NCBI GenBank assembly: GCA_964016885.1
Contig: CAXHJY010000880.1
Span: forward strand, 1 to 64,000
Length of the DNA: 64,000 nucleotides
Reading direction: 5' to 3'
Source of the DNA: Eledone cirrhosa
Taxonomy: Eukaryota
Shown here: positions 1 through 63,040 of the stretch, in pieces
How the letters are laid out: every line of letters begins with the position of its first letter
How positions within the stretch are numbered: the first letter of the stretch is position 1
Made by a program: the position numbers and the translations under genes
The notes under the pieces: model-generated
The model's input: only the letters and a program-made list of their open reading frames with translations
Database searches by the model: none
What the model was told of the DNA's origin: nothing

Positions 1-265
1 CAGTCAGTAGGCACCTCTAACAAAATACACCCCCGTCCCACTACCCCCACCCATCCACACATGTAAAGTTATGTTGGTGTCACAACATCCAGTCCGAAAC
101 AAATGAGGTCGTGTAGGTGTCACAACAAAAAAACACACAGTCCACGCTGTAATGTGGCCGTGTAGGTAACACGGTAAAAACCACGGTAAATATTCTGTAT
201 GTTTATAATAAACATTTTGAAGACCTAATCGCTATAGAATAGAATACGTCACGTATTACAATTAG

Positions 266-354
266 ATTCTCGATAAAAGCAAGGGAAGTAATCTACGCGT
301 TTCATTCTTGTTAGAAATCTTCAGGACCACATATCCAGTGCTTTTATCGAGAAT
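266..354 (-). ncRNA. Type I hammerhead ribozyme, retrozyme copy 1
   Basis: Reverse complement of the motif at 895-983; predicted cleavage between 294 and 293. Confidence 0.82.
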
Positions 355-575
355 GACACAGCTAGAGACTTATAGAATACTTAGCTGTGTACAGGAACTG
401 GTTTGAAAGAGCGGTTGCCGGTCCGGCAGAAATTAGAAATTGGAATAAATGCTCTGAAATAGCGATATATATGTGAATATAGACATAGAATATTCGAAAA
501 TATTCTGTATGTTTATAATAAACATTTTGAAGACCTAATCGCTATAGAATAGAATACGTCACGTATTACAATTAG

Positions 576-665
576 ATTCTCGATAAAAGCAAGGGAAGTA
601 ATCTACGCGTTTCATTCTTGTTAGAAATCTTCAGGACCAACATATCCAGTGCTTTTATCGAGAAT
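576..665 (-). ncRNA. Type I hammerhead ribozyme, retrozyme copy 2 (1-nt insertion in stem I)
   Basis: Same motif with an extra base (ggaccaacat); predicted cleavage between 604 and 603. Confidence 0.75.
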
Positions 666-894
666 GACACAGCTAGAGACTTATACGTGACGTATTCTAT
701 TCTATAGCGATTAGGTCTTCAAAATGTTTATTATAAACATACAGAATATTTTCGAATATTCTATGTCTATATTCACATATATATCGCTATTTCAGAGCAT
801 TTATTCCAATTTCTAATTTCTGCCGGACCGGCAACCGCTCTTTCAAACCAGTTCCTGTACACAGCTAAGTATTCTATAAGTCTCTAGCTGTGTC

Positions 895-983
895 ATTCTC
901 GATAAAAGCACTGGATATGTGGTCCTGAAGATTTCTAACAAGAATGAAACGCGTAGATTACTTCCCTTGCTTTTATCGAGAAT
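895..983 (+). ncRNA. Type I hammerhead ribozyme, retrozyme copy 3
   Basis: gtggtc-CTGAAGA(925-931)-t.ttc taacaa gaa.t-GAAAC-gc-GTA(953-955)|gattac. Stem I is extended by attctcgataaaagca/tgcttttatcgagaat (16 bp); stem III is the palindrome ACGCGT. Confidence 0.85.
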
Positions 984-1204
984 CTAATTGTAATACGTGA
1001 CGTATTCTATTCTATAGCGATTAGGTCTTCAAAATGTTTATTATAAACATACAGAATATTTTCGAATATTCTATGTCTATATTCACATATATATCGCTAT
1101 TTCAGAGCATTTATTCCAATTTCTAATTTCTGCCGGACCGGCAACCGCTCTTTCAAACCAGTTCCTGTACACAGCTAAGTATTCTATAAGTCTCTAGCTG
1201 TGTC

Positions 1205-1293
1205 ATTCTCGATAAAAGCACTGGATATGTGGTCCTGAAGATTTCTAACAAGAATGAAACGCGTAGATTACTTCCCTTGCTTTTATCGAGAAT
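1205..1293 (+). ncRNA. Type I hammerhead ribozyme, retrozyme copy 4
   Basis: Identical to 895-983; predicted cleavage after 1265. Confidence 0.85.
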
Positions 1294-1514
1294 CTAATTG
1301 TAATACGTGACGTATTCTATTCTATAGCGATTAGGTCTTCAAAATGTTTATTATAAACATACAGAATATTTTCGAATATTCTATGTCTATATTCACATAT
1401 ATATCGCTATTTCAGAGCATTTATTCCAATTTCTAATTTCTGCCGGACCGGCAACCGCTCTTTCAAACCAGTTCCTGTACACAGCTAAGTATTCTATAAG
1501 TCTCTAGCTGTGTC

Positions 1515-1603
1515 ATTCTCGATAAAAGCACTGGATATGTGGTCCTGAAGATTTCTAACAAGAATGAAACGCGTAGATTACTTCCCTTGCTTTTATCGAG
1601 AAT
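1515..1603 (+). ncRNA. Type I hammerhead ribozyme, retrozyme copy 5
   Basis: Identical to 895-983; predicted cleavage after 1575. Confidence 0.85.
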
Positions 1604-1738
1604 CTAATTGTAATACGTGACGTATTCTATTCTATAGCGATTAGGTCTTCAAAATGTTTATTATAAACATACAGAATATTTTCGAATATTCTATGTCTAT
1701 ATTCACATATATATCGCTATTTCAGAGCATTTATTCCA

Positions 1739-3985
<2,247 letters not shown>

Positions 3986-4278
3986 GAGATTCCAGATTCA
4001 AAGCCATGGCATATATCATCATCATTGTTTAACGTCCATCTTCCATGCTAGCATGGGTTAGACGGTTTTGTTCCATCTGATGTTGGACTGGTCGGGAGAC
4101 CATGTCTCGCTTGACGGAAGTGTCTCTGGCAGGTTTTCTACAGCTGCATGCCCTTCCTAACACCAACCACAATTACAACCTGGGGTCTCATAAATCAGAA
4201 GCACTATTATTAAGGTCCTAGCCCTCTGCCAGCCATACAAACAGCCAAGCATTCTAACAAATTGTTGAGATACTTGAC

Positions 4279-4506
4279 CTTTCGATGAGGTCGTTGGCGT
4301 TCAGAGCCTGATTATTATCCAAACTTCTCTGTCTTTCTTTCTTTGACTTGGCTGTGCTAGTTGAACATTCCTCGTCTTCATCTTCTTGGTCTGAGAGCCT
4401 AGCGTAAGGTGTTGGTGGTTCGTCAACCTTCATGTGACCATAGTCTTTACCAGGGGGGTGGTGCGTTGCTAGGATGTTCATCTCATCCCATTTCGTTTCT
4501 TTTCGT
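4279..4506 (-). CDS. PPP1R2: Protein phosphatase inhibitor 2, coding exon 2 ([34 protein letters not shown]...NDLIER)
   Basis: Matches the I-2 core [30 protein letters not shown], including the GSK3 Thr-Pro site. Acceptor ttttttcag at 4507, probable donor AG|GTCAAG at 4278; 228 nt, phase 2-2. Downstream exons not seen in the window. Confidence 0.92.
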
Positions 4507-5464
4507 CTGAAAAAACCCAAAAAAGACAACAAGTAAATACAAATGTGAAAAATGAAAGGCATTATTATTATTATTATTATTAGGATGAGGTTAAGTTTGC
4601 CTTTCCTCCTTACGGGGTCGATAAAATAAAGTACCAGTAATACACTGGGGTAATTGCTGGCCTTGTGCCAAAAGTAGAAACAATTATTATTATTAGTATC
4701 GGTAGAGAGTCGGACACTCTGCTTTACAGCATAGAGTTACGGCCCTTTAAGGTCTGAGTTCAAATCCCGCCGAGGTTAACTTTGCCTTTGATCCTTACGT
4801 AGTCGATAAAATGAAATACCAGAAATGCACTGGGGTCGATTTAATGAACTTTCCCCCTCTCTAAAATTGTTGGCACAAATCCAGTAATTTTGAGCAAGAG
4901 GAACGAGTTATGATGATATGTGATGTGAGAGAGGGCGACACTGGGTCGGCCTAAATAGCTGACAGTAGCAGTAGCAGTAGCAGTTAGATGGATTGTAAGT
5001 TCAAATCCTTGCCAGGAAGACAGAAATACCAGGACTGGGGGAGGTGAAAGAGGGGGAGGGATAGGAGAATTATGACAAAATGTGAAATCTGAACAAATCT
5101 TGCTGTAAATATCTGACATTTTTGATTGACAGCCAAACACGTGTGGGTGTGTGTGTGTGCATGTACTGTGTTTGATCGTTATACAAAATATTTGTGCATG
5201 GTTAGTCTCAGTGTGTGTGTATATGCTAGTGCTACAGTGTGTGTGTATGCTAGTGGTACAATGTGTGTATGCTAATGGTACAGTATGTGTATGCTAGTGG
5301 TACAGTATGTGTATGCTAGTGGTACAGTATGTGTGTGTGTGTGCATTTGCCATTTGCCTCTCATGGCATTTTTTATAAACTTTTATCTGTTCTATTTGGA
5401 ATGGAGAGCTAGCTGCTTGACAATATGCAGATTATAAATACATAGATACACACACGCTCACACA

Positions 5465-6092
5465 TCATTATCATCATCATCATTTTATGTCTGTTTTTCC
5501 CTGCTTGCAAGGGTGGGACGGGTTCTATTCAGCACAGCATCTCTCCACTTGTCACGGTCCTAGATCATCTCCTCTGTGACCTTCAGCGATCTGAGGTCTG
5601 CTCTCACCACCTCCACCCATGCTTTTCCTGGTCTTTCTCTACTATGCCTTCCCTCTACTCGGATTTCTTGGCACTTCTTTACCCAGCTCCATGCCCATCG
5701 CATGTCCATACCAACGCAGTTTTCTCTCCCGCACACTACAGTTTATCCCTCTTATACCCAGTTTCTCTTTCAAATCGTCCATGCTTGGTCGTTCACGCAC
5801 AATGACACTGCACATCCATTGGAGCATACTTGCTTCATTTCTCTCCAGCTTCGCACATCCTCTGTAGTTGCTGCCCATGTCTCGCTACCATGCAGCATCG
5901 CGTATCTCACACAGGCATCATATAACCGGCCTTTCGAATGCAGGGAGAAACCCTTCTTTGTCAACAGAGGAAGCAGTTCCCTAAACTTCTTTCATCCTGT
6001 CATTCTAGATCCTATGGCACCAGAGCATCCTCCTTCTTTGCTAATCTGATCACCTAGGTAGCGGAAGCTATCAACCACCTCTACAGATCCTA
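5465..6092 (-). mobile_element. RTE-clade LINE 3' fragment, frameshifted
   Basis: FRYLGD, KGRLYDACVRYAMLHGSETWA and LRWYGH motifs with a (GAT)n tail. Related short fragments at ~27040-27320, 44160-44405 and 55215-55500. Confidence 0.85.
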
Positions 6093-6120: not shown

Positions 6121-6490
6121 CATCATCATCATCATCGTTTAACGTCTATCTTCCACGCTAGCATGGGAATTGTCCCACTTGAGATAAGATTGGTTGGGTG
6201 ACCGTGTCTCGCTCGTATAGGACTATCTGGTAGGTTTTCTACGGCTGGATGCCCTTCCTAACACCAACCACGTTTACAGTGTGGACTGGGAGCCTTTTAC
6301 CGTGTTACATACACGGCCACATTACAGCGTGGACTGTGTTTTTTTTTGTCATGACACCTACACGACCTCATTAGTTTGGACTGGATGTTGTGGTACCAAC
6401 ATAACTTTATACAGAAAGGGTGGTGGGAGTGGAAGGGTGGAGTAGGGGTTGGGGTGTATGTTTGGTTTGGAGGGGCCTACTGACTGTAGG
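6121..6490 (-). mobile_element. ~370-bp dispersed non-autonomous retroelement with RTE-like (GAT)n tail; copies at 1-180, 4015-4170, 8000-8152, 24545-24915, 31128-33050, 42432-42805 and 51772-51882
   Basis: Shared cgtttaacgtc..ttccacgctagcatggg...ctggatgcccttcctaacaccaacc...gcctactgactgtag. Confidence 0.8.
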
Positions 6491-7312
6491 TTAACTTCTA
6501 CTACCAATTTATATTATACATACATATATGTGTGTGTGTGTATAATGGTAATTGTTTTGTGACAAAGGAAAAAGAACTGTTAATTGTTAAACCTAAAGAA
6601 TAGATCACAAGTGTCACATGATATTTGGTGATAAGGGGAGAGAAGTATACATTCCTGGAGACAAAAAAAGGTTTTGGTGATCAGGTAGGTGTAAAACAAA
6701 CACATAGCATTGTATTAGTATTGTATTGTAATAACAAATAAAATGGAAAGAACTAAAAATCCACCAACATCAGTTTAACACTAAAACAACATATTAGTTT
6801 AACACTAACACAGCATATTAGTTTAACACTAACACAGCATATTAGTTTAACACTAACACAACATCAGTTTAACACTAACATGACATTAGTTTAACACTAA
6901 CACAACATATTAGTTTAATACTAACAGTAACATAGATTAATACTAACACAATAAACACAGTATATATTAGTTGAACACTAACACTAACATAGCATGTAGT
7001 TTAATACTAACATAACATGTAGTAATTAGTTTAACACTAACACAACATGTAGTTAGTTAGACATCAACATAACATGTAGTTAGTTAGACACTAACACATG
7101 TAGTTAGTTAGACATTAACACTAACACATGTAGTTAGACACTAACAAGTAACACAACATGTAGTAACAGTCTGGCTATAACACATGGTGTGTTACAGCGA
7201 GATTGTTCCCATGGGAGGGAGCAGGCTTATAAGGAAGAAAAAGTATGAATCTAAGACAAAATCCAGTTATCTCACCCTGTTACACTGCTACTAGCTCTGT
7301 AGGATGAGACAT

Positions 7313-9658: not shown

Positions 9659-10956
9659 TTAACCCATTAACATTACTCTATATATAGTATTGTATTTTCA
9701 CAGTAAAGACTTTACCTCACATAATATCTCATAACATTTACATTACTCTATATATACTATTGTATTGTCATGGTAAAGGCTTTACCTCACATAATATCTC
9801 ACATAACATTTACATTACTCTATATATACTATTGTATTTTCACAGTAAAGACTTTACCTTACATAATATCTCACATAACATTTACATTACTCTATATATA
9901 CTATTGTATTGTCATGGTAAAGGCTTTACCTCACATAATATCTCACATAACATTTACATTACTCTATATATACTATTGTATTTTCACAGTAAAGACTTTA
10001 CCTCACATAATATCTCACATAACATTTACATTACTTTATATATACTATTGTATTTTCACAGTAAAGACTTTACCTCACATAATATCTCACATAACATTTA
10101 CATTACTCTATATATACTATTGTATTTTCACAGTAAAGACTTTACCTCACATAATATCTCACATAACATTTACATTACTCTATATATACTATTGTATTTT
10201 CACAGTAAAGACTTTACCTCACATAATATCTCATAACATTTACATTACTCTATATATACTATTGTATTTTCACAGTAAAGGCTTTACCTCACATAATACC
10301 TCACATAACATTTACATTACTCTATATATACTATTGTATTTTCACAGTAAAGACTTTACCTCACATAATATCTCACATAACATTTACATTACTCTATATA
10401 TTCTATTGTATTTTCACAGTAAAGACTTTACCTCACATAATATCTCACATAACATTTACATTACTCTATATATACTATTGTATTTTCACGGTGAAGTCTT
10501 TATCTTACATAATATCTCACATACCATTTACATTACTCTATATATACTATTGTATTTTCACGGTGAAGTCTTTATCTTACATAATATCTCACATACCATT
10601 TACATTACTCTATATATACTATTGTATTTTCACGGTGAAGTCTTTATCTTACATAATATCTCACATACCATTTACATTACTCTATATATACTATTGTATT
10701 TTCACGGTGAAGTCTTTATCTTACATAATATCTCACATAACATTTACATTACTCTATATATACTATTGTATTTTCACGGTGAAGTCTTTATCTTACATAA
10801 TTATCTCTCGTAATATTGAATCTATGAGATTTTGATATTATCTATTTTTAGAACAATACCTTAACATAAGTATGAGTGGCTGATTGTGACTGGTTTGAAC
10901 AGAAAGAGTTGAGAGAATTCTGGCCAGATATGGCCAGTTTCAATGCTAAAGAGTTA
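9659..10956 (+). mobile_element. MITE-like element (TTAACCC...GGGTTAA-type ends) with its internal 72-bp unit expanded ~16 times
   Basis: 72-bp period. Single-unit version at ~55016-55215; second expanded copy at 62009-63040 in the opposite orientation. Confidence 0.7.
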
Positions 10957-62008: not shown

Positions 62009-63040
62009 TTAACCCTTTAGCATTTAAACCGTCCATATCTGACCAGAATCCTCTCACCTCTTTTTGTTCAAACCAGCTGTAAATGGCCACTCATACTGAT
62101 GTTAAAGTATTGGTCTCAAAATTAATAATATCAAAATCTCATAGATTCGATATTATGTGAGATATTATGTGAGGTAAAGCCTTTACTGTGAAAATACAAT
62201 AGTATATATAGAGTAATGTAAATGTTATGTGAGATATTATGTGAGGTAAAGCCTTTACTGTGAAAATACAATAGTATATATAGAGTAATGTAAATGTTAT
62301 GTGAGATATTATGTGAGGTAAAGCTTTTACTGTGAAAATATAATAGTATATATAGAGTAATGTAAATGTTATGTGAGATATTATGTGAGGTAAAGCCTTT
62401 ACTGTGAAAATACAATAGTATATATAGAGTAATGTAAATGTTATGTGAGATATTATGTGAGGTAAAGCCTTTACTGTGAAAATACAATAGTATATATAGA
62501 GTAATGTAAATGTTATGTGAGATATTATGTGAGGTAAAGCCTTTACTGTGAAAATACAATAGTATATATAGAGTAATGTAAATGTTATGTGAGATATTAT
62601 GTGAGGTAAAGCCTTTACTGTGAAAATACAATAGTATATATAGAGTAATGTAAATGTTATGAGATATTATGTGAGGTAAAGCCTTTACTGTGAAAATACA
62701 ATAGTATATATAGAGTAATGTAAATGTTTTGTGAGATAAAGCCTTTACTGTGAAAATACAATAGTATATATAGAGTAATGTAAATGTTATGTGAGATATT
62801 ATGTAAGGTAAAGCCTTTACTGTGAAAATACAATAGTATATATAGAGTAATGTAAATGTTATGTGAGGTAAAGCCTTTACTGTGAAAATACAATAGTATA
62901 TATAGAGTAATGTAAATGTTATGTGAGATATTATGTGAGGTAAAGCCTTTACTGTGAAAATACAATAGTATATATAGAGTAATGTAAATGTTATGTGAGA
63001 TAAAGCCTTTACTGTGAAAATACAATAGTATATATAGAGT
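62009..63040 (-). mobile_element. Second copy of the MITE-like element with expanded 72-bp unit, interrupted by a LINE
   Basis: ttaaccctttagcattt end; reverse complement of 9659-10956. Confidence 0.75.

Follow-up and report, generated by a model that had tools for sequence, protein, structure and literature searches.

Head-to-head tandem arrays of a 310-bp hammerhead unit in Eledone cirrhosa: a probable non-LTR retrozyme with the paired ends of Penelope-like elements

We analysed a 64,000-nt stretch of the Eledone cirrhosa genome (the window; GenBank assembly GCA_964016885.1, contig CAXHJY010000880.1, positions 1 to 64,000 of the forward strand), in which a 310-bp unit with a predicted type I hammerhead ribozyme is repeated in two arms, one inverted (-) and one direct (+), that meet head to head. 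The same architecture recurs in most of the other genomic loci examined, where the two outer ends of an insertion fall at two different, fixed sites of the unit. The best explanation is probably that of a non-autonomous, hammerhead-bearing retroelement lacking long terminal repeats (a non-LTR retrozyme), which spread in a very recent burst and was mobilised in trans by a Penelope-like element (PLE). An initial annotation, made from the window alone, had proposed a retrozyme, and genomic copies, stem covariation, youth and the favoured dimer fold all agree with that proposal. It had also mentioned the two arms, uninterpreted; these arms are the most informative feature of the element.

The family is large. 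A 34-letter pattern taken from the ribozyme has 15,313 exact matches in the 3.0-Gb genome, while the control gave 0, so that the search for other genomic copies suggested in the initial annotation was amply answered. The first 100 matches correspond to 16 loci within the first 31 Mb of C1, which by extrapolation gives ~2,450 loci and 4.7 Mb. Matches to the unit are dispersed over many contigs. Inside loci, minor variants amount to 52 in 115,620 aligned bases (0.045%; L118 and the older L045 plus arm were omitted from the variant counts). Near-identity of the window copies had been taken as a sign of recent copying, and the low divergence inside loci indeed marks the family as young; a very recent burst thus belongs to the reading that we regard, as a whole, as the probable one, namely a non-LTR retrozyme mobilised by a PLE. 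The family has these genomic hallmarks of retrozymes: a type I hammerhead in every unit, a unit length of 310 bp (typical range ~150-450 bp), a GC content below 50%, multimeric arrays, no coding capacity and a dispersed distribution.

Paired arms and outer ends of the insertions

Two samples of loci were examined. The first comprised 37 similarity-selected loci, i.e. the window and 36 loci from the 150 matches listed of a total of 319, and the second the first 16 pattern-listed loci, on C1. L040 and L041 were counted as a single locus and were left out of the two-arm test, and L118 was left out of the count of paired ends in the pattern-listed set. Two divergent head-to-head arms were found in 30 of the 37 similarity-selected loci and in 11 of the 16 pattern-listed loci. 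Unit numbering begins at the predicted ribozyme cut, the reference unit being 956-1265 of the window. In this numbering, the outer (3') ends of the arms cluster at two sites, site A at unit positions 127-139 (mostly 130 or 139; its position is blurred by the unit's own TA run) and site B at 159-167 (mostly 165), ~26-35 nt apart. Wherever both outer ends could be classified, one was an A end and the other a B end. This was observed in 26/26 loci of the first sample (binomial p 1.5e-8) and in 11/11 loci of the second, thus in 37/37 overall. Moreover, the 3' flanks were TA-rich in 60 of 67 cases, compared to a background of 12.8%. Target-site duplications, which in retrozymes exceed 4 bp when present, were informative in 3/48 loci versus 40/2,256 mismatched pairs, the flanks being nearly pure TA.

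The inner (5') ends behave differently from the outer ones. Their distribution along the unit is uniform (KS p 0.83), with 0 of 60 at 5 nt or less from the predicted cut (p 2e-4 under the assumption that as few as 10% of runs stop at it). Most of them are joined through microhomology of 0-3 nt. In the similarity-selected set, the 30 two-arm junctions all differ from each other, and none carries the junction or flank of a source locus.

PLEs are described as having an inverted, 5'-truncated arm, a tail of 30-40 bp on one end and AT-rich or (TA)n targets (PMC8557442). In vitro, the protein of an anole PLE, predicted to form a dimer, was reported to nick and extend both target strands from two internal start sites that bound the tail (PMC11167929). 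The combination of one A end and one B end in each insertion matches the two-start-site 'tail' signature of PLEs. The link to Penelope, which the initial annotation had drawn from related satellites, gains direct genomic support in the inverted second arm, in the two end sites ~26-35 nt apart and in the (TA)n target.

Three other explanations of the two arms were considered and rejected. Classical L1 twin priming does not fit, as the 5' ends do not adjoin the start of the other arm. Fold-back copying of one arm is unlikely as a general rule, since the longer arm was B in 15 loci and A in 11, and it is also disfavoured because most minor variants are present on one arm only. An assembly artefact was discarded because the junctions all differ, the ends are non-random and PLEs show a like pattern. 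As a side observation, head-to-head arms would, if read through, yield long double-stranded RNA.

The ribozyme and its sister family

The initial annotation had described five near-identical hammerhead motifs spaced 310 bp apart in each arm, and all five were found in place, with core starts at 925, 1235 and 1545 (+) and at 634 and 324 (-). The three direct units are mutually identical, and identity at period 310 spans exactly 683-1740. The inverted arm matches the direct arm at 497 of 498 bases. The arms differ only by one additional T, in stem I of the motif whose core starts at 634; the other four motifs are identical. Folding of 890-990 recovered the 6-bp stem I, the internal loop and the 16-bp helix that had been predicted (z -5.08; none of 200 shuffles was as stable). 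The monomer fold is likewise more stable than shuffles, both linear (z -4.3) and circular (z -4.1). Stem III, noted earlier as a palindrome, is a self-complementary hexamer, and the minimum-energy fold predicted for a two-unit RNA is a double hammerhead paired via this palindromic stem, in keeping with the dimers that the initial annotation named for related satellites. A custom hammerhead descriptor gave 0 matches in 563,044 shuffled bases.

The unit has a GC content of 34.5% and, in agreement with the earlier remark that no credible open reading frame is present, its longest ATG-initiated frame on the circle encodes 30 aa. No reverse transcriptase (RT) or GIY-YIG frame was found in the unit or inside the arrays, so the element does not qualify as an autonomous PLE. 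No LTR architecture was observed, the insertions being unit arrays from end to end; primer-binding sites and polypurine tracts were not searched for. The base of stem II (10.1/11.1), paired in canonical hammerheads, is a U.U mismatch in the window haplotype. U.U is also present in the sister family introduced below, whereas 4 of the 16 C1 loci have A-U. The axolotl HHR_Amex2 too has U.U at the base of helix II; its reported cleavage is 22% for the monomer and higher for the dimer (PMC7229834).

We also found, beside a GIY-YIG match, a sister family with a 315-bp unit that is 67% identical over the whole unit. It has 2,654 candidate places and copies ~94-95% alike (e.g. L134:6382-6813, L128:3889-4120 and L135-L164). 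Its hammerhead has a longer palindromic stem III and GUU or GUC as the cut triplet, and its insertions have two arms as in the 310-bp family. The sister arms end at the two homologous sites. Between the two families, the catalytic core is unchanged, and the 22 pairs compared include 8 double-sided compensatory changes, 1 one-sided change that is still paired and 1 broken pair. None of 200,000 random placements reached 8. The pairs were counted by an anchored script with one natural copy per family, so that this comparison is one of two lineages, not of many; a MAFFT alignment of the two families was out of register after the core and was not used for the pair counts. Covarying stems, the other check suggested from the window, were thus recovered.

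Six changes recur across loci of the young family, at 276 (G/A), 284 (A/T), 287 (T/A), 294 and 295 and as an inserted C at 3. All lie inside the 43-nt ribozyme (p 7e-6 if uniform, computed post hoc), where they fall at tolerated positions, i.e. a G.U/A-U pair, the free core position 7, the 10.1 base, loop II and stem I. The predicted ribozyme is likely active. The L045 plus arm (6690-7026) and L118 belong to an older, more diverged 310-bp subfamily carrying 276A and 284T, which suggests that the window states 276G and 284A are derived. Three lineage-defining changes (276, 295 and 259; L031-L067, L118-L133) are A>G in the RNA sense, two of them in helices, and might reflect A-to-I editing that reverse transcription then made permanent.

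At least 8 further distinct type I hammerhead motifs were observed near GIY-YIG matches (L077, L078, L092, L097, L100-L103, L105, L107, L108, L110, L112 and L114). Most have a mismatch at the base of stem II, and several are short separate insertions in (TA)n.

Penelope-like elements and the copying template

The genome holds at least 10,596 GIY-YIG candidates, with frames combining RT and GIY-YIG of 844-1,096 aa. Two PLE families are young. One of them, PLE-X, has a tandem unit of 4,281 bp whose frame encodes 1,278 aa and is followed, past the stop codon, by a hammerhead; the two end sites fall within the 5' end of this frame. The frame (L185:1054-4887, minus strand; L185 = C1:210193700-210201900) is composed of an asparagine-rich N-terminal stretch, RT, a Zn-finger-like linker and GIY-YIG. 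No Pfam family was matched in it, and its protein look-alikes (Atlas) carry RT and GIY-YIG families. Among the matches listed, 150/150 were identical to a 78-aa query, most of the copies examined are 99.2-100% identical over 650 bp, and PLE-X is apparently active. A second element, PLE-Y, has a unit of ~3.14 kb with a 909-aa frame and copies 99-100% identical (L186-L191, e.g. C1:295430700-295441300); a simple pattern search found no canonical hammerhead in it. The pattern of two arms, two ends and a (TA)n target, with one site per arm, was observed in 6/6 two-arm loci of PLE-X and in 4/4 of PLE-Y, as well as in three older PLE families at one locus each.

In the unit (at positions 176-188), in PLE-X and in PLE-Y, a GC-rich hairpin of 5 bp is predicted at 9-10 nt beyond site B. 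The sister unit has the matching hairpin sequence with a different predicted fold. This hairpin is a candidate enzyme-binding element, and it would fit the reported in vitro need of the anole PLE for RNA 3' of the start sites (PMC11167929). Local alignments around site B between the unit and PLE ends were no better than shuffles (p 0.17-0.63). At L052:6378-7830, an array runs straight, with no TA spacer, into PLE-X sequence that consists of an inverted piece and a plus arm. We considered this locus as one chimeric event and did not use it as evidence: the inner 3' ends are both missing, and a deletion between neighbouring insertions explains it equally.

The arms themselves inform on the template. 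Both arms carried the same haplotype in 36/36 informative loci, and 15 locus-wide haplotypes were found among 52 loci. In L123 and L127, private changes are present in all full units of the two arms, and in L034 in all those of its single arm; such changes imply a bottleneck of a single monomer. Arms range from 0.2 to ~30 units, with arrays of ~25-30 units in L040/41 and L046. With L040/L041, L045, L118, L132 and two small inner pieces of L119 omitted, arm length has a mean of 1,188 nt and decays smoothly, close to an exponential, with no correlation between arms, and 77 of 90 arms are longer than one unit (310 nt). PLE-X arms, at ~1.6 kb, are of the same order. Since copying of a linear monomer from site A or site B would give at most 165 nt, reverse transcription round a circle is the simplest reading of the arrays.

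We therefore envisage the following life cycle, conditionally at each step. Arrays would be transcribed. Adjacent hammerheads would dimerise via stem III and release 310-nt monomers, as suggested by the structure, the covariation and the axolotl precedent. The monomers would be ligated into circles, as in other animal retrozymes. A PLE reverse transcriptase-endonuclease would then nick both strands of a (TA)n tract, with a cDNA start at site A (~130) for one target strand and at site B (~165) for the other, in keeping with the ends observed. Each cDNA would circle the template past the ligated cut, over ~1.2 kb on average, until a random stop. The truncated ends would finally be joined head to head, mostly by microhomology of 0-3 nt, the pattern seen at the junctions. 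Local duplication would later have lengthened a minority of long arrays, and multimers may have served as templates in some cases.

A more detailed version can be put forward only tentatively. In this version, a dimeric PLE enzyme would open both strands of a (TA)n tract, always start at A on one and at B on the other, roll two cDNAs round the same ribozyme-made 310-nt circle and join their ends; it would recognise the RNA by shape, through the GC hairpin ~10 nt past site B, while ribozyme variants would be competing in an ongoing burst.

Several observations weigh against the retrozyme reading or parts of it. The A and B classes were defined post hoc, and class B was widened from 158-173 to 156-173 for the pattern-listed loci; 4 of 30 two-arm loci, the window included, have one end outside both classes. 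Tail lengths differ, being ~26-35 nt in the unit, 56-60 in PLE-X and 43 in PLE-Y, and no sequence shared with the unit was found in 50 GIY-YIG loci, in PLE-X or in 11 stretches covering PLE-Y and two other families. The samples favour arms that hold a whole unit, and arm lengths in the similarity-selected set deviate from an exponential (KS p 0.03). Within single arms, a minor variant is repeated in L040/41, L042, L043 and L046 (periods of 2, 3 and 6 units); in L066, the penultimate unit of each arm shows a private change at one and the same offset; and the junction of L119 is duplicated. Not every unit can thus stem from one monomer circle. As for the ribozyme, the Rfam search suggested in the initial annotation gave no match to Hammerhead_1 up to E 10 and only a weak match to Hammerhead_HH9, far below threshold (14.9 bits, where the gathering score is 52; E 0.88), and the window at 1-6000 gave chance microRNA matches to TA tracts and nothing else. 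Predicted retrozyme dimers of Xenopus were reported to fail to cleave in 8 of 9 cases (10.64898/2026.07.22.740005), and with the anole PLE in vitro, hammerhead cleavage was described as dispensable, uncut RNA being the main template (PMC11167929).

The last finding also favours a rival scheme, in which the element and the PLE enzyme are the same, and the template is a long linear multimer, uncut or slowly cut, from few homogeneous master arrays; circles would be rare or absent and the hammerhead would act at another step. The weak stem II and very short stem III of the ribozyme fit this scheme, as do the private change shared by both arms of L066, the existence of arrays of ~25-30 units and the presence of the 4.28-kb PLE-X unit, too, in tandem arms, at 8 of 43 two-arm loci. 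We nevertheless consider it unlikely, because the private haplotypes fixed in all full units of both arms in L123 and L127 need a monomer step, because every one of the 30 junctions is different and devoid of source junction or flank, because 5' ends do not pile up and because the ribozyme structure has been kept across 33% divergence. L066, and perhaps L044, look like products of multimer templates or of arm-to-arm conversion, and a homogeneous array made from a circle could later act as a linear multimer template.

Local growth is a further rival. Short arms of 1-2 units would be inserted in the PLE manner and would then grow through slippage or unequal exchange, a scheme put forward for vertebrate retrozymes (10.64898/2026.07.22.740005). 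The minor variants repeated at periods of 2, 3 and 6 units do show local duplication in four long arms. Such variants are present in only 4 of 52 loci, however, and most loci have multi-unit arms on both sides despite the low divergence inside loci. Moreover, the smooth decay of arm length resembles PLE run lengths, and the arms of the sister family are shorter, not longer, though this family is older (30 loci, cut with 1.5-kb flanks). Local growth as the origin of the arrays is therefore very unlikely.

Finally, the units could be pseudo-LTRs from the termini of an autonomous PLE with a coding region that escaped our search, or a satellite with an incidental resemblance to a hammerhead. The inverted, tailed ends are indeed those of PLE termini, and a small part of the many GIY-YIG candidates was examined. 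Yet up to ~30 units follow each other with no other sequence inside, and no PLE coding sequence was attached in the 37 + 16 family loci, the abutment at L052 aside, or in 30 sister loci; an incidental motif is ruled out by the covariation. We rate this pair of explanations as very unlikely.

Minor variants, in the RNA sense, were T>C in 9 cases and A>G in 1 (p 0.027, uncorrected, one of three tests), a weak hint of reverse-transcriptase errors. A search of sequence runs for the unit listed 6 runs in 4 studies under 4 organism codes; none is recorded as RNA, which speaks neither for nor against transcripts. The four examined consist of contigs. One of these runs is deep and varied and may be the source of the window itself, and the three others each contained one contig of 340 nt (310 + 30), which a DNA tandem and an RNA circle would both give.

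Features of the window and relation to known retrozymes

The features of the element in the window are listed in the table. The inverted arm does not reach the usual site A, ending 24 nt before it, and its flank there is not TA. Because it ends at unit position 106 against a broken-off repeat copy, a deletion probably removed the left (TA)n tract together with the site A end.

Table. Coordinates of the 310-bp element and its predicted features in the window
Feature	Position	Strand	Remarks
Left flank	1..187	.	broken-off copy of another dispersed repeat, which continues in its other window copies
Inverted arm	188..685	-	1.6 units; unit position 230 (5') to 106 (3')
Type I hammerhead, inverted arm	288..330	-	predicted cut 294/293
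Type I hammerhead, inverted arm, extra T in stem I	598..641	-	predicted cut 604/603
Head-to-head junction of two truncated 5' ends	683..685		3-nt microhomology
Direct arm	683..1740	+	3.4 units; unit position 38 (5') to 165 (3', site B)
16-bp helix extending stem I	895..983 (895-910 with 968-983)	+	in every unit; 4 compensatory changes compared to the sister family
Type I hammerhead	919..961	+	predicted cut 955/956; U.U at the stem II base, palindromic stem III
5-bp GC-rich hairpin (given for one unit)	1131..1143	+	10 nt 3' of site B; candidate enzyme-binding element
Type I hammerhead	1229..1271	+	predicted cut 1265/1266
Type I hammerhead	1539..1581	+	predicted cut 1575/1576
Site A, unit 127-139	1702..1714	+	end of one arm in most family loci; putative first reverse-transcription start
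'Tail' from site A to site B, unit 131-165	1706..1740	+	on one arm only per insertion; site B at 1740
(TA)n microsatellite target	1741..2820	.	at the 3' end of the direct arm

Other repeats were observed in the window. Copies of a dispersed repeat are located at 1-187, 6295-6486, 24719-24912 and 42602-42800, and part of it is amplified as a 49-bp tandem array at 31273-32974. A 72-bp minisatellite is present at 9665-10807 and ~62150-62738, 51 kb apart, in inverted orientation and 95-97% alike. A 3.4-kb (TGG)n-type repeat at 45411-48846 has a strong GC skew and low complexity, with several frames open for more than 1,100 codons, and is probably not a gene.

Schistosoma Sm-alpha and cricket pDo500 are transcribed tandem repeats with type I hammerheads, and the 310-bp family resembles them in its tandem, hammerhead-bearing organisation. 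Newt satellite 2 is likewise a tandem repeat with a type I hammerhead, transcribed and, in the newt, cleaved as a dimer (PMC7229834). In coral, mussel and axolotl, non-LTR retrozymes were demonstrated experimentally to cleave and to form circles, with PLEs only proposed as the mobilising enzyme (PMC7229834). The 310-bp family shares with them tandem units of a few hundred bp, a GC content below 50%, one type I hammerhead per unit and the lack of a coding frame. It differs in that PLE-type junctions are observed here; the terms 'inverted' and 'microsatellite' do not occur in the main text of that paper. A review also proposes PLEs as helpers and describes retrozyme repeats as having no motif that points to the helper (PMC7761336).

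The vertebrate retrozymes have been linked to PLEs by co-occurrence and similarity, read as non-autonomous derivatives and suggested to amplify as arrays locally (10.64898/2026.07.22.740005). They resemble the present family in having hammerhead tandem units of ~300 bp alongside PLEs. In contrast to what was suggested for them, the junctions and haplotypes described here favour the formation of arrays during insertion, and no homology was found to the PLE ends examined. Compared to PLEs themselves, the 310-bp family has the same inverted truncated arm, tail on one end, two internal starts, (TA)n target and hammerhead upstream of the starts. Unlike PLEs, it has no RT or GIY-YIG frame, its unit is short enough for several whole copies per arm, and it does not match the PLE ends examined. 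The Chlamys elements (MRC1) are also non-coding dependants of PLEs with multicopy head-to-tail insertions; they belong to a clade without canonical hammerheads and generally match autonomous families at their 3' end (PMC8557442). We found no description of the 310-bp family, or of retrozyme arrays with paired PLE ends, in the literature searched, most subscription papers, Dfam and Repbase being outside its scope.

The class of element is thus already known (PMC7229834), and the junctions and haplotypes of this family are genomic evidence on how animal retrozymes reinsert and how PLEs employ their pair of start sites. They bear on which enzyme reinserts retrozymes and how their tandem arrays arise. 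The family has value as a test case, since it offers thousands of near-identical loci, a tiny unit that can be read as both barcode and ruler, and a genome that also contains intact PLEs of about the same age. The partner enzyme, the origin of the arrays and the role of the two PLE start sites could be tested with the existing in vitro assay. The strict rule of one A end and one B end moreover amounts to an in vivo readout of how the telomerase-related PLE enzyme handles both strands of its target.

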